DNA of 64,000 nt from Candidatus Moraniibacteriota bacterium. GTDB taxonomy: Bacteria; Patescibacteriota; Minisyncoccia; Moranbacterales; UBA1568. Both the position numbers and the translations under genes were made by a program. The stretch spans positions 6,682 to 70,681 of the forward strand of contig JAHFON010000003.1 in NCBI GenBank assembly GCA_023261695.1, read 5' to 3'. The notes under the pieces were generated by a model that did no database searches, was not told the origin of the DNA, and worked only from the letters and a program-made list of their open reading frames with translations. Positions 2,334-54,091 of the stretch are shown in pieces; the stretch's first letter is position 1; the number at the start of each line of letters is the position of its first letter.

Positions 2334-5300
2334 TTAATTCGTGATTGATTCCACGCCGTCCAGATTTTTGATCTGCGCGAGATGGTCTTCAGTCGGAGAA
2401 AGCGAGAATGTGGTCTGGATGATGGTGCCTCCGATTTGCACTGCGACTTTTTTGGGTCCGGTGGGAATGGTTTTCAAGAGATGTGACAGGCGCTCTATGA
2501 TTTCTTGCGGCGCGGAGTTCCGGACGTTTATAACCAAGTTATTTTGGGCGCGCGGAGTATTGTGTTGCGCGCGGGTGGCTTCGCCGCGGGCGAATTGGAT
2601 CAGTGTGTCCGGCGAAACGCGTTCCAATGTTTCCGCGACGCATTTGAGCGCGCCGTCTTTGTGTGAAACGCGCGCGTTGACCAGCACCACCTCGCCTTCT
2701 ATTAAAAACGCCTGCACGAGCTCCGCCGTCTTGCCGAATATGAGCAGCTCCACGCGGCCTGTCAGGTCCTCAAGTCCCACGAAATACATTTCACTTTGAT
2801 TTTTGGTAATGATTTTGCGCACGCTGACAATCACGCCGCCCAAACGCACATAGGCATTGTTGGTTTTTTTCTCCAGTTCTTTAATGGTGACTGCTGTCTT
2901 GCTGAAATAGTCTTGGTAGTCTTTGACCGGATGGTCGCTGATATACAATCCCAATAATTCTTTTTCCCATTTGAGAGCCGTTTGCTTGGCAATGGGGATG
3001 GCTGGCGAAAGTTTGATGGGACTTGCGGCGAGCGTCATATTTCCAAAAAGGCTGGATTGATGAGTGTCGGCGATCGCTTTCAGATTTTTGGCGTGCCGCA
3101 GAATATCGTCCAGACTTTCCAGGAGTTCTCCGCGCTCTCCGAAATTTTCCAACGCGCCCACTTTGATCAGGGCTTCCAGCGACTTCTTGTTGAGATCTTT
3201 GGTTTTTACGCGTTCTATGAATTGTTCCAGCGTCGCATAGCGGCCGTTTTGTTTGCGTTGCGTTACGATGTCGGAAGCCGCGATGCGTCCCACGTTTTTG
3301 ACGGCATTCAAACCGAAACGGATGCGCTCAATCTGGTTATCCGCAATCACCGCGAATTCCTCAAAGCTTTCATTGACGGAAGGCGGCAGAACCTCAATGC
3401 CCATTTCGCGCGCTTCGTTAATTTCAATGGCGATGCGATCAATATTGTCCTGGTCGGATGTCAAAAGCGCCGCCATAAATTCAGCCGGATAATGCGCTTT
3501 GAGATAAGCCGTCTGATAACCGATGAGCGCGTAGCAGGCGGCATGCGCGCGATTGAAACCGTAATCAGCAAACGGCTCAATGAAGGAAAAAACTTTTTCC
3601 CCGATATTTTTTCCGACACCCGTGCGTATACAGCCCTGGATAAATTTTTCTCTTTGCTCGGCGACGAGTTCTTTGATTTTTTTGCCGACGGCTTTACGAA
3701 GTACGTCCGCTTCGCCCAAACTGAAACCGGCCAGATCGCGCGCGATTTGCATCAGCTGTTCCTGATATACGGCGACACCGTAGGTATTTTTGAGGATGGG
3801 TTCCAGGATAGGATGAAGATATTTGATTTTTTTCGTCCCGTGTTTTCCGTCTATGAAATCTTGTATGTACTCCATCGGACCAGGACGATAGAGAGCCACC
3901 ATCGCGATGATGTCTTCTAAAACGGTGGGTTTCAACTGCTTCAAATAGCGTTTCATACCGGAGCTTTCCAATTGAAAGACGCCCGTGGTGCGCGCTTCTT
4001 GTAAAAGTTTGAAAGTGAGTTTGTCGTCCAAAGGAATTTTTTCTATATGGACGGTTTCATTTTTTGTTTTACGGACGATGCGCAGAGTGTTCTGAATGAT
4101 AGTGAGGTTTTTCAGTCCCAGAAAATCCATTTTCAGCAAGCCGATTTTTTCCACGGCGTTGGATTTGGTGGAAGCGGAATACTGTGTGACCACGCCGCTT
4201 CGGTTGCCGGCGACGCGCTGGAGGGGAGTATATTCGGTAACCGGGTCTTTGGTGATGACGACGCCGCAGGCATGCATTGAAGCGTGTCTGACCAGACCTT
4301 CAACTTGCATTGCAATATCTATCAATTTTTTGGCTTGAGCGTCTGATTCGTACCACTGTTTGAATTCCCGCACTTCTTCCAGCGCTTTCGTGATGGATGT
4401 AAACATCGGGATCATTTTGGAAGTTTTGTCGCAGAATTCGTAAGTATATCCCAGCGCCCGTCCCACATCGCGCACGGCGGCGCGCGCCGCCATAGTGCCG
4501 AACGTAATGATCTGTGCTACGTGATCGTCACCGTACTTTTGTCGCACATAGTTGAGCACGTCATCGCGGCGATCGTCGGCGAAGTCCATATCCACGTCGG
4601 GCAGAGAAATACGTTCGGGATTGAGAAAGCGTTCGAAGAGAAGATTGTACTTAATCGGATCTATATCGGTGATGCCGGTCAAATAAGCGAGAAAACTGCC
4701 CGCGGCCGAACCGCGGCCGGGGCCTACGACCACGCCGTTATCTTTGGCCCAGTTGACGAAGTCTTGCACAATCAAGAAATATGAAGCGAAGCCGGTTTTT
4801 TTGACGACGCCAAGTTCGTAATCTATGCGCGCGCGCTGTTCTGGAGTAATCGTTTCTTCAGGGAAGCGCTTGCGTAATCCGAGTTCGCAGAGTTCGCGCA
4901 GATAGGCGTCGGCCGTTTTGTTTTCCGGCAGTGGAAATTCCGGCAGGTGATTTTCACCCAGAGGAATTTGGAAATTGATGTTCTGTACTATCTTTTCCGT
5001 ATTTTCAAGGGCTTCTGGCAAGTCTTTGAAAATCTCCGCCATTTCTTGCGGCGAGCGCAGAGAGAGATCAAGCGTCATCATACTGAAACGCTCGGTATCG
5101 GAAACTTTTTTGTTATCGCGAATGCACAGCAGAATGTCCTGGATTTCGGCGTGTTCCCGTTTGAGGTAATGCGCATCGCAAGCGGCCACGACGGGAATGT
5201 CGGTTTCGCGGCGCAACTGGACGAGTCCCTGATTGGCGATGATCTGATTTTCGTATTCCAGGTTCGGTCCGAGTTCCAGATAGAAGTTGCCCGCGCCGAA

Positions 5301-15592: not shown

Positions 15593-18175
15593 ATGCCCAA
15601 GAATATTTCGCAGAAAAATATTTCAGATACGCCGGAGTCGGGGTGGATCGTAGTCAAAGGCGCGCGCACCCACAATTTGAAGAATATTACAGTTAAGATA
15701 CCGCGCAATAAAATGACGGCTTTTACGGGACTGTCCGGCTCGGGTAAATCGTCGCTCGCATTTGACACTATTTTCGCGGAAGGCCAGCGTCGCTACATAG
15801 AATCGCTTTCCGCTTACGCGCGGCAGTTTTTGAATACCATGCAAAAACCCGACGTGGACGAGATCATCGGGTTGTCTCCGGCTATCTCCATTGATCAAAA
15901 GTCGGCGGGGCGCAACCCGCGTTCCACGGTGGCGACGGTCACGGAGATTTACGATTATTTGCGTGTTTTGTACGCGCGTTTGGGACGCTTGCGTTGTTTG
16001 ATTTGCGGAAGGGATATAGAGAAGCTGTCGCTGGAGGAAATGCTCGGCATTATCGCAAGTAAAATCAAACAAGCGCAAGCGGATCCTAAAACGCGCAAAC
16101 ACGGTCTTATCATCACGGCGCCGGTGGTGCGCGGACGCAAAGGCGAATATTATCAGCTTTTATACAACGCTTTAGGGCGAGGATTCGCGGAGATTATCTT
16201 GGATGGGGAGCGCAAGAATCTGCGCGAGCGAATTATTCTCTCTAAAAACAAAAAACACAATATTGATTTCATCGTGGATGAATTGCCGCTGGCTGAATTT
16301 GAAAAATTTCCCAAAACATCCGAAGAGCGTTTGTCTGAGGCGGTGCAAAAAGCGTTGGAAGAAAGCGAAGGACTGGTAAACGTGCGCGTCGGAGAGCAAA
16401 ATTTTACGCTTTCGGCGAAATTCTCTTGTCCTGATGACGGCTTTTCTTATCCGGAGGTGGAACCGCGCTTGTTTTCGTTTAATTCTCCGTACGGAGCGTG
16501 CGAGGCCTGCAATGGTCTGGGCACCAAACATTTTTTCGGCGATGAGTTATGCGAGATTTGTCAGGGCGCGCGTTTGCGTCCCGAAGCGCTGTCTATTTTT
16601 ATCGGCGGAAAGAATATCGCCGAAGTGGCGGCGATGACGATTGAAGAAGCGAAAAATTTTTTTGACGCTTTGGAACTTACGCCCCGGGAAAAACAAATGG
16701 CGGCGGTGATGCTTCGGGAAATTAGCGCGCGTTTGAAATTTTTGCTGAATGTCGGATTGAATTATCTGACGCTGGATCGGCGCGGGAGCACGCTTTCCGG
16801 AGGAGAAGCACAGCGCATCCGCCTGGCCAGTCAGCTCGGTTCGCAGTTGGTGGGGGCGCTCTATGTATTGGATGAACCGACGATCGGTCTGCATCAGCGC
16901 GACAATGATCGTCTGATAGAAACACTGAAAGCCCTGCGTGACTTGGGCAATACTATTATCATCGTTGAGCACGACGAGGATACGATTTATGCCGCGGATT
17001 ATCTCGTGGACATCGGTCCGGGAGCGGGAGTGCACGGCGGTGAAATAGTAGTCTCCGGTTATTTGGATGATCTGCTGACGGCCAGAGAGAACGTCTCCGG
17101 ATCATTGACACTGGCCTATTTGCGCGGCGAGGAAAAAATAACTATACCAAATCAGCGCCGCAGCAAAGAAAAAGGAACGCTCAAGATTCGCGGTGCCAAC
17201 ATTTTCAATATTAAAAATATGAACGTGGATGTTCCGCTCGGCCGTTTCAATGTGATTACGGGTGTTTCCGGTTCGGGCAAATCCACTCTGCTATATGAAA
17301 TAATTTACAAGAATTTGCAGGCGCGTTTTGACCGCCGTTACAGATCCAATGAAGTTTTTTACTGCCAATCATTCGGCGGTTCGGAATATCTGGCGCGGAC
17401 CGTCCTGATTGATCAGAGTCCGATCGGACGCACGCCGCGTTCCAATCCGGCGACTTACACCGGAGCGTGGACGCATATCCGCGATCTTTTTGCCGCAAGC
17501 GAAGAAGCGCGGGTGCGCGGCTGGAAAGCCGGACGTTTTTCTTTCAATCGTCCCGGCGGGCGCTGTGAAACTTGCGAGGGAAACGGTTTTCTCGCGGTGG
17601 AGATGCACTTTTTGCCCACCGTGTATATGGTGTGCGACGTCTGCGGCGGAAAACGTTTTACCAAAGAAACTCTGGAAGTGAAATATAAGCACAAGAATAT
17701 TTATGAAGTGCTGGAAATGACAATTGAAGAAGCATCGTCGTTTTTCGCCGATATTCCGGGTGTGGCGGATCGTCTGAAAACATTGAGCGAAGTCGGTTTG
17801 GAATATTTGAAACTCGGCCAGTCGGCCACGACGCTTTCCGGCGGCGAGGCCCAACGCGTGAAAATTTCTGCGGAACTGCATCGCAAATTTTATGACCGCG
17901 CGATTTATCTTTTGGACGAACCGACGATCGGATTGCACTACGCGGACGTGAAGAAACTCATTAAAATTCTGGAGAGTCTGGTGATCAAGGGGAATACCGT
18001 GTTGGTGATAGAGCACAATATGGATTTTATCAAAAACGCCGATTATGTGATTGACATCGGTCCGGAAGGCGGTGCCGGTGGAGGGAAAATCGTGGCGGTC
18101 GGCACGCCCGAAGAGGTGGCGCAAGCGGCGCACTCGCACACGGGGCGGTATCTGAAACGGGCACTGAAGAAGTGA
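15593..18175 (+). CDS. uvrA: Excinuclease ABC subunit A paralog (860 aa, lacks the insertion-domain segment)
   Basis: Two ABC ATPase modules ([14 protein letters not shown]; [11 protein letters not shown]), zinc-finger cysteines, UvrB-binding-domain motif [11 protein letters not shown]. About 90 aa shorter than the second copy between the CxxC motifs of the signature domain. Confidence 0.9.
18101..18175 (+). repeat. Direct repeat copy 1 (last 75 nt of uvrA), 59-nt identical core plus a similar terminal codon run
   Basis: ggcacgcccgaagaggtggcgcaagcggcgcactcgcacacggggcggtatctgaaacg is identical to 22069-22127. Both copies end ...LKKstop. Confidence 0.9.
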
Positions 18176-18269
18176 TTCAAGATTTGACATGAAGCATTTT
18201 ATTTTACACAAATTTCTGTATAATGAAACTAAGGGGGTTGGCCCCTTTAATTATAATTGGTAAACATTT

Positions 18270-20084
18270 ATGGAATTATTGCTAGCCATCATCGCGCTAA
18301 TTTTTTCGGCGATAGCATATAATCGTGTATCCAATCTCGAAAAAGTAGTGAAACGGATACAGACAACAGGTGTTCAGGCGACACCTTTTATGGATCAGTC
18401 ATTAGAACCGCCGTCGCCAATATCCAAATCGGAGGATCTTTCTTCGCAATCTGGAGCAACCTCTTCGCCGGTGTCAGCATCGGAGGATGTTGTTTCTTCT
18501 CAGCAAAACGCGACACAGTTTCCCGGTTCGTCATCTTCTACGCAGCAAGTTTCGGCCCAGACTGTTTTGCAGAATGAGTCGAATGTTATTGAGCAGTTTT
18601 TTCATTGGCTTGCAGTTGATTGGTTAATGAAGCTTGGTGCAGTACTACTTTTTTTGGGAATTATTTGGTTTGTCAATGTCGCAGTATGGGATGCCATAGG
18701 TGAAACTGGACGTGTGTTGATCGGTGTTATGGTTGGTGTTAGTATACTTGTTTTTGGTCATGTTTGGATTGCTAAATATGTGAATCAAGGAACGGTATTG
18801 GAAGGATTGGGAGCGGGTGTTATGCTATTTACGATGTACGTAGCGCAAGAAAGTTACCATTTTTTCCCTCCTGTCGTAGCTCTGGGATTCCTTTTTCTCG
18901 TCTCTGTTTTTGTTGCGTTTTCAAGTGTTGTTAACGGAAGTCAGGCATTGGCGCTTCTCGGTATCGTGTTGGGTGGAGTAGCGCCGTTTTTGATTGGCTC
19001 GTCGGAAGCGAATTTTATCGGACTTTTCTCGTACCTTTTTGTAATATCTATCGGAACGCTTTGGGTCGTGCGTATTCGCGGTTGGCGACCGCTTATCTTT
19101 GCCGCCTTTCTTGCTTATTTTTTCTATTCGTTACCGTATATATTTGGAGCGATGGAGAAAGTTTCTATAGGAGAAGGGATGTTGGTCGCGCTTGTTTTCG
19201 CGACGCTCTTTTTTGTGTCAAATATATGGGCGGCACTCAAATCAGAAAAGATGCATCAGGCTGATATGGTTACCGCTTCTGCCAACGCGTTACTTCTTTT
19301 GGGATGGATAAATGCCCTTGTCCCGGCTGATTGGAAAGGGCTAGTGACAGCTGTATGTGCTTTGGCGTTTTGTTTTGGTGCGGCACTCGTGTTCCGTTTG
19401 CGGGGCAATGGAGTCCCCGTTATGCTCTATACGGCGGTTGCCGGTATGATGTTTGGAGTCGCAACGACCTTTGAGTTTTCCGGTCCGATGCTTGTCGTAG
19501 CATTAACTTTGGAAGTTGGTATCCTGGTAACCGCAACCATCGCTTTTGCTAGAGATATAAGTGCCGCCAATATTATGATGTATCTTTTTCTCATCCCTAT
19601 TTATTTGTCTGTGATGAATATAGGGAATTACTCGGTTGCCAAACAAGTATTTACGGTTGATTTTTTCGCCCTTGTTCTTTTGGGCGGGGCACTCTTCTTG
19701 ACAGCGAGGCTTTTCAGGACTCCGAAAGATGATAGTGAGCAGGTGACCAAATATCACGTTTTCACCGCAGTCGGTTCGCTGTATTTTTTATTGCTTATCT
19801 GGCTTGGTCTCGGGAACTTGTTATATCCGAACCGTGATTTGGCAGTCACTATTTCTTTGGTGATCTACACGATTATTGGTTTAACGTTGTATATTTTTGG
19901 CAAGCTTAATGCGGCGCGCGGCAAAATGTATAGTGGAGCAGCGCTGTTATTGTTTGTGGTGGGGTATCTTCTTTTGGTGTCTGTTCGGGAAATGGAGATT
20001 GTCGGGCGCATTGTGACTTTTTCTCTGGTGGGTATTTTACTCATGAGCACCGCCTTTATCGGAAGGTGGTCTCGTCGTAAATAG
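18270..20084 (+). CDS. Polytopic membrane protein with Ser-rich low-complexity N-terminus (about 14 TM)
   Basis: Long hydrophobic helices throughout residues 110-600. No catalytic motif recognised. Confidence 0.45.
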
Positions 20085-20101
20085 TATATTTTTCAAACAT
20101 T

Positions 20102-21268
20102 ATGAAAAAAATAGCCAAGAAAATAATAGTGGCCGTTTCGTTGTTTTTTGTCGGAGTTATATTCTTTTCGGTTTTAGCTGTTTTTGCCAAGGAAAAAACT
20201 GAAATGGCGGAGGATTCTTTGCGTGCATTTGTTTGGATGAAGGATGTGCCGGTTCCTGCAATAACAATTCCGACTGTTGTGGAGGCGCCTATTGATGAAT
20301 CTACAGGAAACGAAGGCTTTGCTGTATTCGAAGAAACAACGAAAACTTTTCAGCCAAGCCTTTTTAAGGAATCTATTCAATTTACAAAAGTGGCGTTTTC
20401 AGTCGAAGCTCTCGGGAAAACATCTCAAATTTTTTCCGATGGAGATGCGACTAATTTCATAGAATTTCCGGTAAGCGATGAGCGTGGAGCAACTGCCGAA
20501 TTACGTATCCATTCAATGTCTCCGATTGCTGCTACGGGTCTGATGTTTTCTTTAGATCGCTTTGTTGCTCTACCTCGAACAATCGAAGTGCGCGCGATAG
20601 TGGATGGGACAGAGAGAATTGTTTTGGCTTCTTCTATGCTGAATGATCGAGTGATTCGTTTTCCCAAAGTATCAGCGGCAGAATGGACGGTACGTTTTGG
20701 ATATGTTCAGCCACTTCGCATTACCGGACTTTCTTTTTTTGAAGAGGATAATGCGCATATCAATTCTGCTGGCGTGCGGTTTTTGGCGCGTCCAGGCGAG
20801 CGATATCGGTTGTATCTAGGGACTGACAGACTAGTACCGATCCGCGTCGGGGAGCGGCCAAATCTATTTGATGATAGAGATGTTGTGCGTATCGCTGATT
20901 CCGAAAAAGTTAAAAATCCATTATATGTTCCAGTTGATACTGATGAAGATGGTGTGAAAGATCTTTTGGATAATTGCGTTTTTGATAAGAACTCTGATCA
21001 GAAAGATGAAAATTCAAACGGGCGTGGTGATGTTTGTGATGATTATGATCACGACGGTATCGCGAATGGAAAAGATAATTGTATGTCCTATCCGAATAGT
21101 GATCAGAGAGACACGGACGGCGATGGGAAAGGTGACATATGTGACTCCGAAGAGAGTAGGGTTCTAGAAAAATATTCATGGTTATCATGGGCTGGTATCA
21201 GTTTAGCGGGAATTGTCGTTGCTATTTTGTTTGCTTTAACGATGCGGCAGATGAAGAGGAATAAATAA
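20102..21268 (+). CDS. Membrane-anchored protein with thrombospondin type-3-like calcium-binding repeats
   Basis: N-terminal [16 protein letters not shown]...[26 protein letters not shown]...[15 protein letters not shown] (DxDxDG...C repeats), C-terminal TM. Confidence 0.5.
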
Positions 21269-21292
21269 CTTAAGCATCTAATCAAAAGAATT

Positions 21293-22030
21293 ATGGAAGG
21301 CGGACAAGTTCCAATAAGTGAGAATGTACCCCCATCTGATCAGTTACTCGCTCTAAACAGTAACTATCAATTAGCAAGAGTGCTTTTTTTTGTACTTTTT
21401 ATTGGATTGATAATTTTCTTGCCGATCGGAGTTATTTTATCGAAGAAGCATGATACAGAAAAGGCAGCATTATTAAAGTCTCAACTGTTGGATGCACAAG
21501 CGAATCAGAAATTGCAAATGGATGCTCAAACAAATCAAAATCTGAAAATACAGAGTGATGCCGCGATGAATAACGAGACGACATATAAACAACCGGAAAA
21601 TAATTCCTTTCCAGCCGGACAGACTGCGCCGACTACTGTAGTGAATGGAAATGGGCAGACGCCCCAGTCTGTTCAGGTACCTGTTCGACAGTTACAACAG
21701 ACTGAAATAATAGGGATGATCCAAAATGCGCTTGTAAAGGTAACTGATAGTATAAAAGCGTGCAAGGCTGGATCTGGATTAATAGGCTCTCAAGGAACCG
21801 GAGGCATGCCACTCTGTGATTTCCAGTCTGATGTTTGGCCAGTGCTTGAATATTGCGGACAATGGCCATCAGACACAAAGTATATCGTGTTTAATTCTGG
21901 TACGGCTGATAATTGGGATGTGACTATAGTGTGTAGGCAAGTCCAAAGTTGTAATGGTCCAGAAAACGCTATTTGTAATAAAAATGGTTGTACATTTAAG
22001 GGGACGTGTCCGCCGGTGAGAGGCTACTAA
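21293..22030 (+). CDS. Hypothetical secreted/anchored protein, Q/N-rich with Cys-rich C-terminal domain
   Basis: N-terminal TM helix, 10 Cys in last 90 aa. Confidence 0.35.
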   Translation: MEGGQVPISENVPPSDQLLALNSNYQLARVLFFVLFIGLIIFLPIGVILSKKHDTEKAALLKSQLLDAQANQKLQMDAQTNQNLKIQSDAAMNNETTYKQPENNSFPAGQTAPTTVVNGNGQTPQSVQVPVRQLQQTEIIGMIQNALVKVTDSIKACKAGSGLIGSQGTGGMPLCDFQSDVWPVLEYCGQWPSDTKYIVFNSGTADNWDVTIVCRQVQSCNGPENAICNKNGCTFKGTCPPVRGY

Positions 22031-22068
22031 ACATATCGAAAAAACGCGCTGTAAAAATTGTTGTCAGT

Positions 22069-22143
22069 GGCACGCCCGAAGAGGTGGCGCAAGCGGCGCA
22101 CTCGCACACGGGGCGGTATCTGAAACGCGTGTTGAAAAAATGA
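22069..22143 (+). repeat. Direct repeat copy 2 (orphan duplicate of uvrA 3' end)
   Basis: 59-nt identity with 18101-18159. Retains in-frame ...GRYLKRVLKK stop but has no upstream uvrA body. Confidence 0.9.
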
Positions 22144-22185
22144 ATGTGTTATAATGCAGATAACCTAATTTTTTCACTAAATATT

Positions 22186-22770
22186 ATGCAAGATGTCAGC
22201 CAAGACGTTTCCGCGCCGGCGCCGAAAAAGAAATTGGGCATTGTCAAATGGGCGCTGATTGTCGGTATCGCGGTCGTGATAAATCTCTTTTTGGTTTACC
22301 TGGTGGACTCTATACGCAAGGAGCCTGGATATACGGATTTTTGTCCGGAGCGTCAGGTAAATCGGATGATTGAATCAGAGGCGGAATGTTTGAAAGTTGG
22401 CGGGCAATGGAACGAAAGCGCGGATGTAAGAATACAAAAAACGCCGGAGCAGTCTTTTCCCGCGCCTGCCGTTCCTAGCTATTGCGATCCTGATTACACT
22501 TGCCGCAAACAACACGAAGACGCGCTGAAAATATATAACCGCAACGTGTTTGTGATATTTGTGATCGCGGGGATTATGCTTTTGATTGCCGGCGTGTACG
22601 CGGGAGGGACTGAAGCGGTGTCATTGGGACTTTCTTTCGGCGGGGTGATCGCTTTAATTTACGGTTCAGGGCGCTATTGGTCGGATATGAACGATATTTT
22701 AAGAGTCATTGTTTTAGGTATGGCGCTGGTAGCTCTTATATATGTGGCGTGGAAAAAATTCCAAGATTAG
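22186..22770 (+). CDS. Hypothetical membrane protein (N- and C-terminal TM helices)
   Basis: Track start 22144 abuts the duplicated stop codon. A -10-like tgttataat precedes ATG 22186. Confidence 0.4.
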   Translation: MQDVSQDVSAPAPKKKLGIVKWALIVGIAVVINLFLVYLVDSIRKEPGYTDFCPERQVNRMIESEAECLKVGGQWNESADVRIQKTPEQSFPAPAVPSYCDPDYTCRKQHEDALKIYNRNVFVIFVIAGIMLLIAGVYAGGTEAVSLGLSFGGVIALIYGSGRYWSDMNDILRVIVLGMALVALIYVAWKKFQD

Positions 22771-22782
22771 CATTATTTTGTT

Positions 22783-24087
22783 ATGAAATTGTGGGATAAA
22801 ATTTTAACCTTGGAAAAATTCCAAAAGAAAAATACACTCCCTGATTTACCCGGAGTGTATTTTTTCTTGGGCGCGAAAAAAGAATTGCTCTACATCGGCA
22901 AGGCGACGATTCTTCGCGATCGGGTAAAAAGTTATTTCTCTCATAATGTTCTGGCTACGCGCGGACCCAAAATCGGGCGAATGCTGGAACTGACGCGTTT
23001 TGTCGCTTATCGGACGGCGGATTCCGTGTTGGAAGCGTTTATCTTGGAGACGAACTTGATCAAGCAATATCAGCCGCCGCACAATACTTCCGCTAAAGAT
23101 GACAAGAGTTTCAATTACGTCGTAATCACTCGGGAAAAATATCCGCGAGTGCTGGTCAAAAGGGGACGGGATATTCTTCATTCCCATCAAACGTTGGAAA
23201 CCGGTCGGGAGTATCAGAAAATATTCGGCCCTTTTGCTTCAGGTGGCGCGCTTCGCGAAGCGCTGAAAATCGTGCGCAAAATTTTCCCTTTCAGAGACAA
23301 ATGCGCGCCGTATGAGGAATGGTTCCTCAAACAAAAAATCAAAACGCGCGGCGGACAAAATAGCGGTGGTGCCGGCGCGCCGTGTTTTATGGCGCAGATC
23401 GGATTGTGTCCGGGTGTTTGCGAGGGAACGATTACCGCGCGCGAATATCAGCGGACGATTCGTAATATCATTATGTTTTTTGAAGGACGTAAAAATCAGC
23501 TTTTGAAAAAACTGGAACGTGAAATGCAAACGTCTGCGAAGAATTTGGAATTTGAACGGGCGGGTGAAATCAAAAAAACCTTGTTTGCTTTGCGGCACAT
23601 TCGTGACACGGCGTTGATCAAAAATGAATCAGGAATTTTGACAGGAAGAATTGAAGCCTATGATGTGGCGCATCTGGCGGGGACCGCGAGTGTCGGCGCG
23701 CTGGTCGTGGTGCAAAATGGTTTGGCGGACACGAGCCAGTATCGGAAATTCAAATTGCGGCGTAAACATCATGGCAACGACTTGACGGCTTTGCAGGAAA
23801 TTCTGGAGCGCCGCTTGAAGCATACGGAGTGGCCTTTGCCAGATATCATCGTGGTAGACGGAGCGGATCTGCAGATCGGCGCGGCCAAGCAGGCACTTTT
23901 GACTTCGGGTCTCACGATTCCGCTTATCGGGGTGGTGAAAGATGCCAAGCATCAGCCGGAGCGTTTGATGGGAGAGGAGAAGCTCACGAAACGTTTCCAG
24001 AAGGCCATTCTTCTGGCAAATAGCGAAGCGCATCGTTTTGCCATTACTTTTCACCGCCATCGCAGAAAAAAAGAGTTTTTACCATAG
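22783..24087 (+). CDS. uvrC: Excinuclease ABC subunit C, short form (GIY-YIG + UVR + endonuclease domain, no C-terminal HhH)
   Basis: GIY-YIG motif GVYFFLGAKKELLYIGKA...R, UVR-like FERAGEIKKTLFALRHI, RNase-H-like IEAYDVAHLAGTASVGALVV. 434 aa. Confidence 0.8.
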   Translation: MKLWDKILTLEKFQKKNTLPDLPGVYFFLGAKKELLYIGKATILRDRVKSYFSHNVLATRGPKIGRMLELTRFVAYRTADSVLEAFILETNLIKQYQPPHNTSAKDDKSFNYVVITREKYPRVLVKRGRDILHSHQTLETGREYQKIFGPFASGGALREALKIVRKIFPFRDKCAPYEEWFLKQKIKTRGGQNSGGAGAPCFMAQIGLCPGVCEGTITAREYQRTIRNIIMFFEGRKNQLLKKLEREMQTSAKNLEFERAGEIKKTLFALRHIRDTALIKNESGILTGRIEAYDVAHLAGTASVGALVVVQNGLADTSQYRKFKLRRKHHGNDLTALQEILERRLKHTEWPLPDIIVVDGADLQIGAAKQALLTSGLTIPLIGVVKDAKHQPERLMGEEKLTKRFQKAILLANSEAHRFAITFHRHRRKKEFLP

Positions 24088-24138: not shown

Positions 24139-24216
24139 AAAACGTCATACCAGTGACGTTAAATTCTGGTAAGAACTTTGACAATTCAAGCAAAATTTAA
24201 GAAAGGAGAAAGGCGG

Positions 24217-25722
24217 ATGAACAAATTCGTGAATTATCTCGATCCGACTGTCCCGGTTGAGGAACGTCTGCGATGGGCATTCGATGAGTTACGGCTGTCA
24301 AATGATCAGCGGGAAGGCGTCGTTGCCTTTCTGCACCCACTCAAAGTCAAAGATCGTGCCACTTATGAACACAGTATTAGAGTGGGGTTGCTGGCTCGTC
24401 GCATTGCTCGCTTCATGCATCTTGATGAGAGGGCACTGCTCTATGCTGGCTTACTTCATGACACAGGAAAGTGTCAGACCTGGTTGGGAACACTTCAAAA
24501 GACTGAAGGCTGGACACCTGCCGATACAGAGGAAATCAAACAACATGTTCTTGATGGCCACCGACTAATTCATGGTCATTTTGATTTCACTGCAGAGGTT
24601 ATCCTTTGGCACCACCGTTTTCAGGCTGGCGGTTATCCAAAAAAAATGCCTGCGCCATTGCATGAATACAGCGAGGGAACTAAGACGATGATCGCTTTCT
24701 ATGGTCGTATTCTGGCGCTGGCTGACTGTTTCGATGCACTGCATCGGGTCAATGACAAGTTTGGCGCGCTTACCGGTGAGCAGGTAGAGGAAAAGATGAT
24801 CGCGCTCAATCGTGATCAGCGGGTTTTGGTCGAGGAGTTGTACAATGCCGGCGTTCTCACTACCTATGTGGTCAGTGAAGAACTGGCAATCCTGCAACCG
24901 CTCGATATTCACGATCAGCTGTACCTGCAAATCTGGGAGCGACAGCAGTCAGCACGGACAGTCGATGAGACAATTCGTGGTATCGTGCTGGCGACCGCAT
25001 TGGAACCATTATCCGACAAGGCAGGCTGCACCACCCGACACCGCAATCTGAATCGCTGGCAAAAGCTTGAGTACTTTATCGCAGCGGCGATAAATATTGG
25101 AGATGCGTTTCGCGACCTTCTTACTGCAATCGGTAGTAGTCGGCGACAAATGCCAACCATCTACCAATACGCTTTAGCGGCGCAGAAGGAGAGCAAACGT
25201 AACCGTCGTGGCGGTCGTGTGAACCATGGCATTATTGAGTTGCTGTTGCCCGTCGTGGTGGCACAGCACGTGTATGACATGGAACGACAACTCACGGCAG
25301 AGGAAGTTCTTACCAAAGCCGTTGAGGTGCTCAAGCAAACATCTGCGGATGATATCCGTTATCTCCGCGAGATGAAGCGATTTGCGTTTGACCTTAGTGG
25401 CTATTTCGATCGTCCTGTACCGGAGTGTTCGACGGCTCATACCGTATTTGAGTACTACGAACAAGACTTGGGTACCTCAACCAAACAAACTGGCATTGCT
25501 CATAATTCCGAGTTTGTGAAGGGGTTCCCAACGGTGGCAGCTGTTTACATGGCAATGTGTAAGTGTCAGCTTCCTGAACTGAACAGCAAAACAGAAGAAG
25601 CTTACCAGAGAGCGGCTGCTTTGCATCACGGTGATGTGGCGAGCGGTTTTTTGGCTGACTGTGTGGCTGTTGGGTTGTATCTGCAGCTGTCACATAATCC
25701 GAAGTGTAAACTCGTATCTTGA
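24217..25722 (+). CDS. HD-domain metal-dependent phosphohydrolase with about 300-aa C-terminal extension
   Basis: H...HD...H...D pattern: YEHSIRVGLLA...LLHDTGK...ILWHHRF...LADCFDALH. Track ORF begins at TTG 24178; ATG 24217 has a strong RBS. Confidence 0.7.
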   Translation: MNKFVNYLDPTVPVEERLRWAFDELRLSNDQREGVVAFLHPLKVKDRATYEHSIRVGLLARRIARFMHLDERALLYAGLLHDTGKCQTWLGTLQKTEGWTPADTEEIKQHVLDGHRLIHGHFDFTAEVILWHHRFQAGGYPKKMPAPLHEYSEGTKTMIAFYGRILALADCFDALHRVNDKFGALTGEQVEEKMIALNRDQRVLVEELYNAGVLTTYVVSEELAILQPLDIHDQLYLQIWERQQSARTVDETIRGIVLATALEPLSDKAGCTTRHRNLNRWQKLEYFIAAAINIGDAFRDLLTAIGSSRRQMPTIYQYALAAQKESKRNRRGGRVNHGIIELLLPVVVAQHVYDMERQLTAEEVLTKAVEVLKQTSADDIRYLREMKRFAFDLSGYFDRPVPECSTAHTVFEYYEQDLGTSTKQTGIAHNSEFVKGFPTVAAVYMAMCKCQLPELNSKTEEAYQRAAALHHGDVASGFLADCVAVGLYLQLSHNPKCKLVS

Positions 25723-27430: not shown

Positions 27431-27740
27431 GAAATAGGTTCTAACTTGGTACAATAGAGACACAAATAAATAGTTTTTTTGTGCTGTAATTATACACCTC
27501 GTGCGCCATCAGTTCCGTTCAAAGTAGGTTCGGATTTCGTCAAATAAACGCACTATCTAAATAGTACTCCTTTTTGGAATGCTATTTTCAATAATTTGAG
27601 CGGGAGGAATGAGAAGGGCGCGAGTAGAAAGCGAGCAAGCAATCTCTCACTGAAGCTATACAAGCCTCTTTACACCGCGCGAAAAAGAATGTATGCTGGG
27701 AGACAATTGCGTTTTCTTTGTCAGCAGACTTTCCATAACT

Positions 27741-30539
27741 ATGCCGGGAAAAAAATCGGTTATTGAAATTCGCGGCGCGCGCGTCAACAATCTGAAAAAC
27801 GTGAACGTGGACATTCCGCGTGACGCTCTTGTGGTGATCACCGGACTTTCCGGTTCCGGAAAATCTTCTTTGGCTTTTGATACTTTGTTCGCGGAGGCCA
27901 ATCGGCGCTATGTGGAATCGCTTTCTTCGTACGCGCGCAATTTTCTGGACAATCTGGATAAACCGGATGTGGATGCGATTCACAATCTCTCACCGGCCAT
28001 TTCTATTGATCAGAAGAGTGTGTCGCGCAGTCCGCGTTCCACCGTCGGCACAATGACGGAAGTTTATGATTATCTGCGAGTGCTGTTTGCCAAACTCGGT
28101 GTGCCGCATTGTCCTGTGTGCGGCAAGCGTCTGACAAGAAAGAGCGCGCGCGAAATACTGGACGAGATTTTGCGTTTACCTGATGAGACGGCGCTGATTT
28201 TTACGGCTTATAATCCGACCTTGGTTGGAAAAACTGAAACTGAAGCGCTGGTCTCCATTGGCGGTTTAGGTTACGCGCGGGTGTTTTTTCGCGGAACTTT
28301 GTTGACGGTTGCCGAAGCCTCTGCCTTGGCTTCTCCCGTGAAAGTTTCCAAGGTAGAAATTGTTATTGATCGTCTGACTCTGGATTTCTCTCGCCTCGAC
28401 AAGGAGCGTATATTGGATTCTGTGCAGACGGCTTTTCACGTGGGGCAGGGAACATTTGTATTGCGCGTTCCTGCCACCGGCGAAGAGCGTTTTTATAATG
28501 AAGAGTACCTCTGTGAAAAATGCGGCGTGCATTTGCCGGAATTTACGCCGCGGCATTTTTCTTTCAATAATCCTGAAGGGGCCTGCGAGCAATGCGCCGG
28601 CCTTGGCGTAACATTGAAATTTGATCCGGAGCTCATCATTCCCAATAAAAATCTCTCGCTCTCCGAGGGGGCGATCCGTCCTTGGAGCAAAACCAACGGT
28701 GATCGCCATACCGGACAGGGGACGATGCAGTGGCTTCGCGAAGCCAGCCGCCAACACAAGTTTTCGCTGGACGTGCCGGTGAAAAAACTTTCTGCCAAAC
28801 ATTTGAATCTTATATTGTACGGAGAACGCGATGAACGCCAAGACGCTTTTCCGGGAGTCGTGGCACTGCTTCAAAAGAAATACCGTGAGACTAAATCCGA
28901 CCACTCACGTGCCGATATTGAGGCGTATATGTTGGTTAAAATCTGTTCGCTTTGCGAAGGCAGACGTCTGAAAGCCTCGGCGCGGGCCGTGAAGTTGGAA
29001 GGGTTTTCCATCAGTGATCTGACGCGCCAAAGCGTGGCGGCATTTTTGGAAACGCTGAAAGTTTTGCGCGAAAAATTATTGAAGACGGAGAAGTTGAAAA
29101 TTCTTGATCCTTTGTTTCGCGAGATGTCTATGCGTCTGCACGCGGTGGAAAAAGTGGGTTTGGGATATCTGGAACTCTCTCGCGGCGCCGACACTCTTTC
29201 TGGCGGAGAAGCCCAGCGTATACGTCTGTCGGTGCAGATGAAATCCGGGCTCTCGGGCATCATTTATGTTTTGGATGAACCGACCATCGGATTGCACAGC
29301 CGTGACACGGAAAGATTGATCAATGCGCTGGAAGATTTGCGCCGCGCCAATAATTCGCTGGTGGTGGTGGAACACGACGTTGCGATTATGCGTCGGGCGG
29401 ACTATATCATTGATATGGGTCCGGGGGCTGGCAGTAACGGCGGAGAGGTTATTTTCGCGGGCACGCCGAATATGCTTACGCATTCCAAACTTCTGACGGG
29501 GCAATATCTCTCCGGCAAGCGCGTTTTATCCGAAAAGAAACAATCGCGGCGCTTGAGCGAAGCGGCGATTACTATCTGCGGCGCGACCGAGCACAATCTG
29601 AAAAATATTGACGTAACGATTCCTCTGGGTATGCTGGTGGCGGTTTCCGGTGTTTCTGGTTCAGGGAAATCCAGTTTGGTGCATAATATTCTTTCCCGCG
29701 CTTTGTCCAAATATTTCTATCGTGCCAAACTTGAGCCGGGAGCGCATAAAAAAATCACCGGACTTTCCAATCTGGACAAAGTGATCACTGTCACCCAAGA
29801 TCCGATAGGCCGGACGCCGCGCTCCAATGCCGCGACATATACGGGGGTGTTTAGTTTGATCCGCGACTTGTTCGCGGAAACGATTGAAGCGGAGCGTGAT
29901 AAATATTCAGCCAGCCATTTTAGTTTCAATATGCGCGGCGGCCGCTGTGAAGCATGTCAGGGCGGCGGGTTGAAAAAAATTGAAATGTATCTTTTGCCGG
30001 ATGTTTACGTGCCGTGCGAAGTTTGCCAAGGAACGCGGTATAATGCCAAGACGCTGGCCATTGAATATCGCGGAATGAATATTGCCGACGTGTTGCGTAT
30101 GACGATAGCGGACGCGCGGAAATTTTTTCTGGATCAGCCGCTGATTGAAGAGAAATTGCGCGTTTTGGAAGAAGTCGGTCTCGGGTATCTCGTGTTGGGT
30201 CAGAGCGCGACCAATCTTTCCGGCGGAGAAGCCCAACGTATCAAACTGGCGACGGAACTTGCGCGCAAATCAACGGGCAAGACGCTCTATATTCTGGACG
30301 AGCCGACAATCGGTCTGCATTTTGAAGATGTGCGGCGTTTGTTTGAGGTGTTGGAGGCTCTGGTGGCGAAGGGGAACAGCGTGCTGGTCGTGGAGCACAA
30401 TATTGACGTGATTCGTTATGCCGATTGGGTGTTGGAGCTTGGTCCGGAGGGCGGCGAGCAGGGCGGCGAACTTATTTTCTCCGGCAGTCCCGCGAAATTA
30501 AAAACTTGCGCGCGTTCTTTCACGGCAAAGTATTTGTAA
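27741..30539 (+). CDS. uvrA: Excinuclease ABC subunit A (full-length, class I)
   Basis: [20 protein letters not shown]...[14 protein letters not shown], UvrB-binding and insertion domains present, second ABC module [11 protein letters not shown]. About 930 aa from ATG 27741. Confidence 0.95.
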
Positions 30540-44014: not shown

Positions 44015-45497
44015 ATGAAAATACTGGTTTCTCGGGAAGATGCGAATTATTGGCAGAAGAAAGGCGCTTTAGCATTCCGTTTTCAATTTGGAAATGAGAG
44101 TAAAGACGGAATTATCATAGAGCGAAACGGACAACATACGTGCTTTATCGCTTTGGGAGAGAAAGAAAAACCCGCCCGCAACGATTCGCAGGCGAAACGC
44201 GGTGATTCTGGCGGGATGACGCGGCGTAAGCTGATACTTCTGGCACGGCGGGTAGTCTTTGAGGCGTTGAGGAAAAAATACACAAACATCGTCTTGGACT
44301 TCCGGCAGTTTCGTTTTCCGGCAATCAAGATAACTGATGGCGAACTGGCTGAATTATTGGCGATAAACTTTCTGATGGCGAGTTTTGAATTTCGGGATTT
44401 TCTTTCCAAACCGAAAGAGGGGTTTCCAAAAGTAAATACCATTACTCTTGTGAACGCATCCGGAAAAGAAATTCAGAGTGGTATAGAACGCGGTATTATC
44501 ATCGGAGAAGAAGTGAATCATGCTCGGCATATTGCGACGATGCCGGGAGGAAATATGACGCCGGCGATTCTCGCCAAACATACCAAGCAATCCGTGAAAG
44601 GTTTGCCTATCCAATTCAGCGTTTTGAATGAGACGCAAATGGCGCGTTTGAAAATGGGCGGCGTGCTGGCTGTTGGTCAGGGGTCTCAAGAGAAGTCGCG
44701 TTTTATTATTTTGGAATATTTTGGCGCGGGTAAGCCCGCCCAAGGCGGATCCGCCTCTAGCGGAAAAGAAAAACCAATTTGTCCTTGTGGGCAAGGGCGT
44801 GACATTTGATACAGGCGGAATCAATCTCAAACCCACCGATGCCATTCTGGGGATGAATATGGATATGTCTGGCGGCGCGGCGGTTATTCATACGTTGATT
44901 GCTGCGGCTCGTTTGAAGCTTCGGAAAAATATTGTGGCGCTCATTCCGGCCGTGGAGAATGCGCCGTCGGGATCAAGTTATCGCCCCGGGGACGTGCTTC
45001 GTTCAATGTCCGGCAAGACGATTGAGGTGCGAAACACGGACGCGGAAGGCAGAATTATTTTGGCCGACGCGCTTACTTATGCCAAGCGTTACCGACCGGC
45101 GTTGGTTGTGGATGTCGCGACACTCACGGGTTCCGCGGTGGTCGCGCTCGGAGAAAGAGCCATCGCGCTTTTTACGCAAGACGAAAAATTGGAACAAACA
45201 TTTCGTCTTTTGGGTGAGGAGAGCGGGGATTATGTCTGGCCGTTGCCTTTGTGGGACGAGTATGACGAAGACATCAAAGGAGTGTTTGGCGATGTGGCGA
45301 ATGTCGGCAAAACGCGCTACGGAGATGCTATTTTAGCAGCCGTGTTTCTCAAACAATTTGTAGCGGACGCGTATCCATGGACGCACCTGGATATCGCGCC
45401 GCGGATGACGGCTTTACCTGATGAATTTCTAGCTAAAGGTTCCGCCGGCGCTCCCGTGAGACTTTTGGTAAAATTGCTGGAGAAGTTTACGAAGTAG
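44015..45497 (+). pseudogene. pepA: Leucyl aminopeptidase (M17) interrupted by a frameshift near 44745-44790
   Basis: N-part (frame 2, 44015-44809) and C-part (frame 0) with VGKGVTFDTGG and NTDAEGR motifs. A-rich run gaaaagaaaaacc at the junction. Confidence 0.75.
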
Positions 45498-49461: not shown

Positions 49462-50253
49462 ATGGCCTCGCATCAAAGAAAAATGTTTGAAAATATTTTG
49501 CGTTTTATGGCGTGCGTGGTAATTCGCGCGCGTCAGCCGCTGATTATCGGGATCCTCGGATTATCCGGAAACACATTAACTAAAGAAGCAGTAACTTTGG
49601 TTTTATCCCAAACATATTTTGTCCGTAAGATACAAGGAGAACGCGCTGATGAAACCGATGTTTGGTTGACGATTATCGGCGCGTCAGACGCTCGCGCGCC
49701 GCTTATATATTTGATGGCGGCTTTTTTTCGCTGGCTGGCGATAATGGTTCTGCCTATACGCTATCCGGATGTGCTGGTGCTGGAAATGAACATTGAACAA
49801 CTTGGGGACGCAGAACATTTAATGAGTTGCATACCGATGAAAATCGGCGTGGTTACGCAGATTATCTCAAACGACAACACGTCTTCCGAATTTGCGGGAG
49901 ATGTCGTCAAAAAATATGGGAAGCTGATGGCGCTTCTGCCGGAAGACGGCTTTGCCATTTTGAACGCCGATGATAAACGCATACTTAAGCTTAGGGAAAA
50001 AACGCCAGCCAAAGTTATCACTTATGGTTTTGGCGCAGACGCGTTGTTGTTGGCGGATAACCCGGTTTCTCATCGCGAACTGGGGGGGGATGAAGGATTT
50101 AGTTTCAAACTTAATTATGATGGCAAAACGATACCTGTGCGCTTGCCGAAATCAGCTACCACGGCGCACATTGAACCGGCGCTTACGGCGGCGGCTGTCG
50201 GCATCGCGCTCAAAATGAATCTGGTGGAGATCGTTTCAATTTTGGAAACGTAA
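49462..50253 (+). CDS. Truncated/degenerate Mur-ligase-like protein (MurF/MurE-like fragment)
   Basis: LNADDKR, ITYGFG and a degenerate P-loop GLSGNT in place of GTNGKT. 263 aa, lacks C-terminal domain. Lies at the boundary of the AT-rich island. Confidence 0.45.
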   Translation: MASHQRKMFENILRFMACVVIRARQPLIIGILGLSGNTLTKEAVTLVLSQTYFVRKIQGERADETDVWLTIIGASDARAPLIYLMAAFFRWLAIMVLPIRYPDVLVLEMNIEQLGDAEHLMSCIPMKIGVVTQIISNDNTSSEFAGDVVKKYGKLMALLPEDGFAILNADDKRILKLREKTPAKVITYGFGADALLLADNPVSHRELGGDEGFSFKLNYDGKTIPVRLPKSATTAHIEPALTAAAVGIALKMNLVEIVSILET

Positions 50254-50407
50254 TTTGTTAAATTTTCCTTGATTTGCTACACTAACACCTCACAATCGAG
50301 TGGGTTAATTATGTTGAAATTGTGGAAACAAGTTCTTTATCAATTGAATGTATGATGAAGGAGAGCGTTGGTATTTTACAACAATGAAAAAACTAGGGAG
50401 GGGTATT

Positions 50408-50842
50408 ATGAAGTACATTCATATTCACGTACGAGTTGTTGATCTTGTAGAGATTCTCGGAAAAGACAGGTTTCCCAATCAAGAGGATGAGAAAGTCAAT
50501 GCTGGAGATCTTTTGGAATGGTGTGTTGTTAAATATCCTTCTGGTAATACTGGTAATAAAAATTCTCCCGGCAGAATAGGTGAGGTTTCATTGCTCTCGT
50601 TTCCTGTTCAGTTTATGCAGGACATGTTACTTTCTACCCTTGAGGGAAAAGAGTATGGCGTTGAAGAATGCAGAGGCATGAAGCATGTTCATTCTTGCGG
50701 TTGTATTGAAATCACTCGCTGGGCGCATTTAGATCGCGAGTTTGGCCAGTCTGTTCTTTGCCCAACTTGTAATGACCGCATGTATCGCACCGTTCCTTTT
50801 ATACAAAATACCGTTTCAAAATGTTCATTGCATGCTACATAG
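50408..50842 (+). CDS. Hypothetical Cys/His-rich small protein (first gene of AT-rich island)
   Basis: RBS gggagggg before ATG 50408. HSCGC...CPTC cysteine cluster. Confidence 0.35.
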   Translation: MKYIHIHVRVVDLVEILGKDRFPNQEDEKVNAGDLLEWCVVKYPSGNTGNKNSPGRIGEVSLLSFPVQFMQDMLLSTLEGKEYGVEECRGMKHVHSCGCIEITRWAHLDREFGQSVLCPTCNDRMYRTVPFIQNTVSKCSLHAT

Positions 50843-50980
50843 TCAGCTAACGAAGAAGGGTAGTTTACTATTTGCTGTAAGCCCTCGTGGTGGTAAGTTG
50901 TCCACCACGGGGGACTTTTTATTTTTGGAAAAATACCATATTATTAAATTCGGGTAGTCTATTAATATTGCTTAGTTTGT

Positions 50981-53900: not shown

Positions 53901-54067
53901 ATATAATGCGTATGCTTGAGAAATCACATATGGAAAAAAGTTTTAAGGATAGTGTATTTTTTGTCTTTTCAGATGGTGCAATGCAAACAATCTATCCGAA
54001 AATTGCAACTTTGTATTTAAACACAAGAAAACGAGGATTTGGGGAGGCGCCATGGTTTGAGAATTAA
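50981..54067 (+). CDS. Asparagine synthetase-family amidotransferase (class II GATase + PP-loop synthetase) with about 490-aa C-terminal extension
   Basis: MCGIVGIF (Cys2 nucleophile), SGGVDSS PP-loop. Residues 540 onward include a region resembling SsuA/NMT1-type substrate-binding folds, then an unknown domain. About 38% GC. Confidence 0.8.
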   Translation: MCGIVGIFGKNNASQRARASLEKIVHRGSNVYELKDFVGGTLGANRLPIVDREFGQQPLPNEDGGIFVVQNGEVFNYKELQAELKQKGHNFKTDCDTEVLVHLYEEYREKMMDKIDSEMFAFVIYDTKTNSVFAARDALGVKPLYYATDKTGQFYFASEIKQLSCFDDIKNIRVFPPGHYYENGKFKQYLSLKIGNNIKNEKRATRELEVRLVDAVKKRVKTDLPIGVLLSGGVDSSLIMEIASRLHPDVTGIILGYPGSSDHEFALRLCKERGYKYHIVRPDIDYKQELDLLIYHLETYEPLIIRQSFALDICAREAQRLGLRIVLVGEGSDELFGGYNEFSNLPDKLINKGCEMLVKSLHAGHLQRVDRMSMKHTVEVRCPFFDKDVVKLALQIHGDLKVRRQNHQIITKYIVRKVAENFLPSYIAWRYKVPFSNGAGMNVGSNFKVQDGDVAKVVLQKAEVNIETEVVKKYGVNTKEGRYYLKKYFEYGFDKVVGSERRLIVKDNLGDLYKAKRTRLVMAEFDRLAIYFPVYFAAQEGYFKTHDLEVDFIATGGDDRTYASLVNNSAHIGLADPMFAMFENIGGVKGEIIGELVNIVPNVAVTINPSIQINEIKDFTKYRVGTFQKFTTTHSVAKYFLPSQTEIIPYDYDELVGKLIDRKIDVAIVIPEQAVELVASGGRIVFDFKILGKNFLFSGFTISNLIELKYRKKLKSFISAIRESTRYIIKNKEISFKTFQKLFPYLKNPRVIFDYYLDIWSPTIKVENSDYHAAQKMWKQVCPELLKEYLPYFGTKSITEPVLEKINDRNFRRDFPFLEDRLEELIINSMSNGAVLKFIGFWGAGKKNRITTLDKEIIDRLKKYFDGIRKVLGANIEITFILADEHAKNNGFVPREYNSYLSGIKEYLEKNDFKTMHLNILWKKWGLNQSCIIKLLEKKSERWWRDVPIAEKLENQAVKRFLFKNKKEGAQKYYIMRMLEKSHMEKSFKDSVFFVFSDGAMQTIYPKIATLYLNTRKRGFGEAPWFEN

Positions 54068-54091
54068 TGATAATTTTTTTAGTTTTAATAT

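Follow-up and report, generated by a model that had tools for sequence, protein, structure and literature searches.

How does a block of envelope genes come to lie between two copies of the same gene end? The question is raised by a 64,000-nt stretch of the genome of a Candidatus Moraniibacteriota bacterium (contig JAHFON010000003.1, positions 6,682 to 70,681 of the forward strand; hereafter the window), where the 3' end of a short uvrA paralogue recurs downstream and three genes stand between the two copies. They encode a DUF2339 polytopic membrane protein, a double-anchored surface protein with thrombospondin type 3 (TSP3) repeats and a 245-residue Cys-rich protein (Cys245). An earlier note on this DNA had proposed site-specific insertion into the uvrA end with reconstitution of the target. 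We conclude that the block is a genuine, recent and integrase-less insertion that works like an element of the e14 type or a cis-mobilizable element (CIME), without being a proven member of either class. Named relatives of the short uvrA at 83–86% amino acid identity are Candidatus Moranbacteria or Moraniibacteriota, within the Patescibacteria or candidate phyla radiation (CPR).

The duplicated end of uvrA

Repeat search and alignment defined a 90-nt direct repeat, formed by the last 90 nt of the short uvrA (18086–18175) and a second copy at 22054–22143, with a start-to-start spacing of 3968 nt. Its parts are as follows, the assignment of segments to host or foreign DNA being the reading argued below.

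18086–18175, + strand: repeat copy 1, an attL-like hybrid; host-type 5' part (18086–18100), core (18101–18159) and putatively foreign uvrA tail (18160–18175)
18101–18159, + strand: core copy 1, a perfect 59-nt exact match with two copies in the window
22054–22143, + strand: repeat copy 2, an attR-like hybrid and 29-codon uvrA relic; putatively foreign 5' part (22054–22068), core (22069–22127) and apparent original host tail, RVLKK-stop (22128–22143)

The 59 consecutive identical bases noticed earlier are confirmed at 18101–18159 and 22069–22127, and the repeat as a whole, at 90 nt, extends 15 nt further 5' than the roughly 75 nt first described. Exact copies of the core number two in the 64-kb window against a chance expectation of zero (100 shuffles). 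The 90-nt copies differ at 13 positions, seven in the outer 15 nt on the 5' side and six in the outer 16 nt on the 3' side, and these mismatches occupy only positions 5–14 and 74–86 of the repeat. A clean run of at least 59 nt was seen in none of 200,000 random placements of 13 mismatches, which puts chance below 5e-6. Between the window copies the core shows no difference in 59 positions, compared with 10–21 of 59 among orthologous uvrA ends.

Copy 2 is an in-frame uvrA relic of 29 codons plus stop, lying directly behind a TAA; the earlier statement that it stays in frame to its stop holds, the relic ending RVLKK-stop. The core encodes 19 residues and the first two bases of an R codon, and its peptide is typical of the uvrA tails of the closest host clade. 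By count, third codon positions are GC-rich in the core and, as in the inserted genes, AT-rich in the apparently foreign 5' 15 nt of copy 2.

Assembly support

The source being a metagenome assembly, the arrangement might be an artefact, or a uvrA core shared by two co-occurring strains might have linked them into a chimera, and Logan contigs built at k = 31 do break exactly inside that core. The two Logan runs concerned nonetheless hold identical sequence, and a break inside the core is what a 59-nt repeat would cause at k = 31. An 88-kb MEGAHIT contig covers both repeat copies and was assembled at k = 141, more than the length of the 59-nt core and of the whole 90-nt repeat. The right junction is also covered by a separate k141 assembly (L001, ERZ27279977) with 1 mismatch in 2905 nt, and in either reading both junctions are sequences that occur as real DNA. 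All Logan and ENA datasets checked agree at 100% identity over the block, and four datasets show the same junctions. The repeat-bracketed structure is not an assembly artefact, a concern raised in the earlier note that the k141 contig and the second assembly, both spanning junctions, did not bear out; we regard a chimera or other artefact as very improbable.

One Logan contig (L003, 3969 bp) was suspected of being an excised circle from its length, which is near the repeat spacing. It equals window positions 18130–22098, that is, the 3909 nt between the cores plus 60 nt, or 30 nt of core on each side. We rejected it as a circle because a k = 31 graph yields just such a stretch at a 59-nt repeat.

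The uvrA junction in relatives

We examined 80 species-representative loci with short-uvrA orthologues, including up to 10 kb of flank where the contig allowed. None of the 80 carries a DUF2339, TSP3 or Cys245 homologue within 10 kb of uvrA, and none carries a second uvrA-end relic; about three quarters of them have uvrC downstream of uvrA, no more than 10 kb away. The five closest relatives with a visible downstream flank show what lies at the site, where TM208 denotes the small membrane protein that follows the relic in the window.

L169: uvrA 86% identical (amino acids); TM208 directly after uvrA
L004: uvrA 83% identical; TM208 directly after uvrA
L005: uvrA 83% identical; TM208 directly after uvrA
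L170: uvrA 86% identical; a different 211-aa anchored Cys-containing protein (3443–4078), then TM208
L174: uvrA 85% identical; a different 214-aa anchored Cys-containing protein (2939–3583), then TM208

The block is absent from the junction in all five, three of which are empty and two of which hold another gene. TM208 begins 35–50 nt past the uvrA stop in the three empty loci, and no uvrA-end repeat surrounds the conserved gene in L170 and L174 whose 211- or 214-aa product is anchored at its N-terminus. The junction exists in three states, with that of the window unique to it, and is a variable spot. The comparison of uvrA–uvrC regions suggested in the earlier note has been made in this way, with the block absent from the five closest relatives and from the 80 loci, and it supports an insertion in the window when the closest available relatives are taken as reference.

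Polarity of the repeat copies

The last 90 nt of uvrA from six relatives were compared segment by segment with both window copies. Over the 5' 15 nt, mismatches to copy 1 and copy 2 were 1 versus 6 in L006, 2 versus 8 in L005 and 3 versus 6 in L170; copy 2 was the less relative-like in four of the six and equal to copy 1 in L169. The 5' part of copy 1 (AAAATCGTGGCGGTC) is off the relatives by 1–5 of 15 nt. Over the 3' 16 nt the corresponding counts were 5 versus 1 in L169, 5 versus 2 in L004 and 4 versus 2 in L005, and against the five closest relatives the tail of copy 1 showed 4–5 mismatches and that of copy 2 showed 1–4 (13–16 positions compared). Sequence past copy 2 continues like the uvrA–TM208 junction of L169. 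The odd segments are themselves genuine uvrA: KIVVS and ALKK-stop keep the reading frame and stay inside the range seen among 120 orthologue tails.

Because the uvrA ends of relatives resemble copy 1 at the 5' side and copy 2 at the 3' side, the copies read as reciprocal hybrids. The comparison supports a composition in which copy 1 would be host 5' part, core and foreign tail, and copy 2 foreign 5' part, core and host tail. Reciprocal hybrids in turn argue for one crossover, like the attL and attR of a Campbell-type integration. By the same tail comparison, the last 16 nt of the present short uvrA (RALKK-stop) appear to come from the inserted DNA.

Homology-facilitated illegitimate recombination during natural transformation would produce a related picture with neither a circle nor att sites. 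A foreign linear fragment consisting of a uvrA end and the operon would have been anchored in uvrA by homologous exchange, and illegitimate joining of its other end some 90 nt before the host stop would have duplicated the host uvrA end. Passages of PMC12455944 describe Patescibacteria as considered naturally competent, and the window contains type IV pilus genes (T2SSF, PilM, PilN and PilX_N at 31.9–38.4 kb); no integrase is present, and the junction tolerates other insertions in L170 and L174. A linear fragment, however, predicts a copy 2 that is host throughout, whereas its 5' 15 nt are the less relative-like in four of six relatives (6 mismatches versus 1 in L006, 8 versus 2 in L005). It also needs a donor equal to the host over 59 nt yet about 40% diverged on both sides. 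On balance we find this route quite unlikely.

A proposed single crossover at the uvrA end

The explanation we favour, with confidence somewhat better than even, is one reciprocal Campbell-type crossover between a 3,968-bp circle carrying a foreign uvrA 3' end and the chromosomal uvrA end. The incoming DNA, circular or circularised, would have consisted of the DUF2339/CBM32-TSP3/Cys-rich operon and a 90-nt foreign uvrA 3' end, and the crossover would have fallen within the 59 nt identical between the partners. In this way uvrA would have been kept intact, the incoming DNA giving it a new tail, RALKK-stop. The original host tail would have stayed behind as the 29-codon relic before TM208, which would retain its own promoter region, and the insert would carry its own upstream non-coding region. 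The predicted attB product is ...GGAGGGAAAATCGTGGCGGTC + core + CGTGTTGAAAAAATGAATGTGTTATAATGC..., and the predicted attP product is ...AAACGCGCTGTAAAAATTGTTGTCAGT + core + GGCACTGAAGAAGTGATTCAAGATTTGACATG...

Both a circular intermediate and a foreign origin would be part of this event. The enzyme would be, with about equal probability, a site-specific recombinase acting in trans, as for an integrase-less CIME-like element, or host RecA working on the 59-nt identity. Natural transformation may have brought the DNA in. The core of the element is probably host-derived, judging from its peptide and third-position composition, and could have become host-like through repeated excision and re-integration at varying points or through gene conversion. 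Of the site-specific insertion with reconstituted target end proposed in the earlier note, the insertion and the reconstituted end stand, now joined by the reciprocal hybrids; site specificity does not yet stand, no integrase gene lying within about 74 kb. The cassette swap by recombination that the note had held in reserve comes close to the reading favoured here.

The inserted genes

Between the uvrA stop and the relic lie a short non-coding segment and three co-directional genes.

18176–18269, + strand: non-coding left end of the insert, upstream of DUF2339, with TATAAT boxes at 18219–18224 and 18252–18257 and a hairpin at 18230–18249
18270–20084, + strand: cargo gene 1, DUF2339 polytopic membrane protein, 604 aa; Pfam PF10101, E = 2.4e-35; GC content at third codon positions (GC3) 0.436
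20102–21268, + strand: cargo gene 2, double-anchored surface protein, 388 aa; Pfam TSP_3; AlphaFold2 model with a predicted local distance difference test score (pLDDT) of 92.7
21293–22030, + strand: cargo gene 3 (Cys245), 245 aa; one N-terminal hydrophobic segment and C-terminal 8-Cys domain; no Pfam match

To judge from its motifs, 18176–18269 may function as a promoter region; no canonical two-hexamer promoter was called in this left end of the insert. A crude hydropathy scan of the DUF2339 protein gave 19 partly overlapping hydrophobic segments, about 15–17 of them distinct, and a Ser-rich stretch (29% Ser) lies near the N-terminus, after the first helix. In the AlphaFold2 model the 388-aa protein runs from an N-terminal helix through a CBM32/F5-8 type C-like beta-sandwich and TSP3 calcium-binding repeats to a C-terminal helix, and Foldseek matched the beta-sandwich to CBM32 modules in the PDB with E about 1e-4. 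The protein has 181 homologues of the same length, whose source names, where given, are Moranbacteria, Parcubacteria, Paceibacterota or Patescibacteria. Among TSP3 homologues the nearest reaches 60% identity (L175, a 1.7-kb contig that offers no context), with all others at 48% or less. Cys245 is 29% identical to the third gene of a DUF2339–TSP3 operon in L086 and, by the same hydropathy scan, looks membrane-anchored rather than simply secreted. The operon is probably glycan- or host-surface-binding.

The gene descriptions in the earlier note are largely upheld. Its Ser-rich protein with 14 transmembrane segments (about 15–17 distinct segments by our scan) and its double-anchored TSP3 protein are both there. 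For its Cys-rich secreted protein the eight Cys residues are present, and the hydrophobic N-terminal segment suggests anchoring in place of secretion.

GC3 of the cargo genes is 0.44, 0.34 and 0.35 against a mean of 0.50 for the other 42 genes, with normal GC content at first and second codon positions. This suggests a donor of lower GC content and a foreign origin, a suggestion weakened by a control locus, L087. The composition check asked for earlier comes out, in short, at GC3 0.34–0.44 against about 0.50, with a similar deficit for the same genes in L087. At two further control loci, L084 and L086, GC3 of the operon matches that of its neighbours.

The DUF2339–TSP3 pair in other genomes

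We fetched 85 loci by TSP3 homology (L084–L168). The region upstream of the TSP3 gene was visible in about 70 of them, the rest being cut by the contig end, and in all of these about 70, as at 18270–21268 of the window, DUF2339 lies directly upstream of and co-directional with a TSP3 gene of about 390 aa. Gene order is the same and sizes are similar elsewhere. In the Moranbacteria loci L084 and L087 the pair sits between M48 peptidase and pyruvate kinase; L086 has it in yet another neighbourhood. A TSP3 profile search of IMG/VR returned no relatives. DUF2339 and the TSP3 protein form a conserved chromosomal gene pair, a phylum-typical envelope operon and not classic mobile DNA. The decayed island of the earlier note is for this reason one option only, the cargo not being island-like and the pair being chromosomal elsewhere in Moranbacteria; the other option is a housekeeping surface operon that was horizontally exchanged or relocated.

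In a survey of 47 testable loci, bracketing of the pair by gene-end repeats was seen only in L087 and L088. There, paralogous membrane-protein genes of 160 and 159 aa flank the pair (L087 7622–8163 and 11163–11700; also in L088). Their bodies are 56–59% identical at the amino acid level, and their last 19 codons with the terminator hairpin agree at 92% over 119 nt. In L084 this flanking gene occurs only downstream of the pair. Elsewhere, L158 has a 48-nt intergenic, terminator-like repeat, and in L142 and L143 the pair is flanked by two different tRNA-Val genes. General bracketing of the pair by gene-end repeats was rejected, two cases in 47 loci making no pattern; L087 and L088 hint that more than one lineage has exchanged the pair by recombination.

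A large serine recombinase (Resolvase, Recombinase and Zn_ribbon_recom domains) is encoded at 4666–6342 of L158, about 2 kb upstream of the pair. It abuts tRNA-Arg, no link to the pair was found, and it was rejected as a partner of the operon. In two distant Patescibacteria (L126, 3128–11134; L164, 8387–18881) the pair lies 2–5 kb from the canonical uvrA/uvrC, on different sides. No uvrA-end relic is present in either, and the proximity may reflect chance or an old linkage.

The wide conservation of the pair favours a local, non-horizontal origin, in which the host's own DUF2339–TSP3 operon would have moved or been duplicated beside uvrA with a 90-nt target duplication; the relic would then have decayed at its edges while gene conversion kept its middle identical. 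Besides the standing of the pair as a conserved native operon of the phylum, such an origin would accommodate the GC3 deficit also seen in L087 and the likewise bracketed pair of that locus (119 nt at 92%). Decay, on the other hand, would scatter mismatches and not confine 13 of them to two ends. Copy 1 is the copy under selection, yet its tail is the less host-like. An edge divergence of about 42% implies an old event, which is hard to square with 0 differences in 59 positions, and the nearest TSP3 homologue reaches only 60% (the rest at most 48%) though uvrA relatives reach 86%. We consider a local origin unlikely.

Evidence weighing against the proposed crossover

Several observations count against the Campbell-type crossover. 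The foreign uvrA tail would be about 40% diverged in its flanks yet identical to the host over 59 nt, which requires one to suppose conversion or repeated crossovers as well. A conserved chromosomal gene pair is not what mobile elements typically carry, and the TSP3 gene of L087 has GC3 0.54 against about 0.68 in its neighbours although the pair there sits in its usual neighbourhood. The comparators are about 79–80% identical in uvrA DNA, so that the empty site is a difference across species and not a polymorphism within a population. Exact-protein look-ups and core searches found no attB or attP junction contig among public contigs, nor was there any hit to the core, searched in codon-degenerate form in JGI (Joint Genome Institute) metagenomes and exactly in IMG/VR. 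Finally, Pfam scans of the three cargo genes and all larger open reading frames (ORFs) of the 64-kb window, together with gene calls for a further 10 kb of the contig (about 74 kb in all), turned up no tyrosine or serine recombinase, either in the block or around it. The absence of an integrase reported earlier for the block extends to this whole region.

The only gene of recombinase type is an rve DDE transposase at 56083–57189, 34 kb from the block. No conspecific empty site was found. No cognate integrase-bearing element was seen at uvrA in the 80 related loci or in IMG/VR, a sample in which the host species itself is not represented. The features expected of an integrative element are present in the bracketing direct repeats, the reconstituted uvrA 3' end, the reciprocal hybrid ends and the absence from relatives; a recombinase of its own beside the att site is lacking.

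Other kinds of insertion were tried and rejected. A transposon or insertion sequence would leave a target-site duplication of 2–14 bp, compared with the repeat of 59–90 nt with gene-like diverged flanks seen here; there are no terminal inverted repeats among 14 inverted pairs and no transposase in the block. An RNA gene as insertion target was rejected on finding no tRNA or tmRNA gene in the 64-kb window (ARAGORN) and no Rfam family at the site, 17000–23500 giving nothing beyond a chance-level hit. The second uvrA paralogue of the window was rejected as source of the relic, no similarity having been found.

The uvr neighbourhood and other features of the window

The genes that adjoin the block are these.

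15593–18175, + strand: short uvrA paralogue, 860 aa, intact; Pfam ABC_tran and UvrA_inter with no UvrA_DNA-bind hit; Moranbacteria orthologues at 83–86% amino acid identity
22144–22770, + strand: TM208, small membrane protein, likely start 22186; follows uvrA in the closest relatives
22783–24087, + strand: uvrC; Pfam GIY-YIG, UVR and UvrC_RNaseH_dom; marks the ancestral uvrA...uvrC neighbourhood

Order on the + strand is uvrB, ydjC, short uvrA, the three cargo genes (DUF2339, TSP3 protein, Cys-rich protein), relic and TM208, followed by uvrC, an HD/CitG protein, a radical SAM protein and a second, canonical uvrA. A putative promoter motif of TM208, an extended -10 (TGTTATAAT), lies at 22147–22155.

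The two uvrA paralogues of this small genome lie 9.5 kb apart, at 15593–18175 (860 aa) and 27693–30539 (948 aa). The canonical 948-aa form has a UvrA_DNA-bind Pfam match, which the 860-aa form lacks, and in most of the 80 Patescibacteria loci the uvrB...uvrA...uvrC neighbourhood belongs to the short uvrA. Between uvrC and the second uvrA, a 514-aa protein (24178–25722) combines an HD phosphohydrolase domain with a weak match to CitG (triphosphoribosyl-dephospho-CoA synthase), and its gene adjoins that of the radical SAM/B12-binding protein.

Further along, an M17 leucyl aminopeptidase is split by a frameshift into overlapping ORFs (44015–44809 and 44673–45497) that cover PF00883 profile positions 2–74 and 74–310, either as a pseudogene or through an assembly error. 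A second low-GC3 block (49462–57189; GC3 0.29–0.34 versus about 0.50) holds a 164-aa ORF, a 1028-aa asparagine synthase–NMT1 fusion and a B12-binding radical SAM protein, and is flanked by a short Mur-ligase ORF (263 aa, part of Mur_ligase_M only) and the rve DDE transposase. It resembles a further acquired insertion, situated within the cluster of mraW, penicillin-binding protein and mur genes.

Comparison with known systems

In structure, the nearest known parallel is prophage e14 in the icd gene of Escherichia coli. As passages of PMC13626634 (citing Hill et al. 1989) describe it, e14, like phage 21, inserts in the 3' end of icd and leaves a C-terminal pseudogene, icdC. As in the window, the target is the 3' end of a protein-coding gene, which is kept intact by a diverged end that the element brings along; beyond the element the original end survives as a pseudogene of the C-terminal part, so that direct repeats stand at either side (same source). 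The differences are that e14 has its own integrase and excises on SOS induction, whereas the window block has no recombinase, no phage genes and no evidence of excision; its cargo is three envelope genes and its host a CPR bacterium.

CIMEs, as defined in PMC5704250, resemble the block in having att-like repeats at the 3' end of a target gene and no integrase of their own. They are recognised by a cognate integrative and conjugative or integrative and mobilizable element with the same att specificity in related strains, and none was seen here in the 80 loci or in viral contigs; the window cargo also differs in holding no remnant of mobility genes.

RecA-dependent Campbell integration of a non-replicating circle, as with suicide plasmids, leaves direct repeats of the homology on either side of the insert, and these become reciprocal hybrids where the homologues differ. 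Both hold in the window, although 59 nt is a short substrate. We know of no natural Campbell-type delivery of a conserved operon into the 3' end of a gene described for CPR bacteria. The conserved DUF2339–TSP3 pair elsewhere occupies other neighbourhoods, not beside uvrA except in L126 and L164 (2–5 kb), and lacks a flanking gene-end repeat except in L087 and L088.

Significance

A bolder reading, which we hold to be a long shot, is that the DUF2339/CBM32-TSP3 operon would be a recombinase-free mobile cassette of CPR bacteria that carries a mimic of a host gene 3' end, pops out and re-integrates by Campbell-type crossover. Host recombination, or an integrase with its gene elsewhere, would do the work, repeated cycles would have left the host-like core with its foreign edges, and L087 and L088 would provide a second example. 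Such a cassette would swap cell-surface alleles, for host attachment or phage receptors, between lineages.

Large-scale predictions of genomic islands, transferred genes and prophages exist for Patescibacteria, according to passages of PMC12455944 in which we noticed no insertion worked out to the level of its recombination junctions; at the present locus every base of the junction is readable. As it stands, the locus is a tidy case of a known structural pattern in an understudied phylum. Under the crossover favoured above, it would mean that a conserved envelope operon can enter a new chromosomal site by one reciprocal crossover, leaving a DNA-repair gene undamaged. If the cassette is mobile, episymbiotic bacteria would be able to exchange alleles of surface proteins with no dedicated recombinase.

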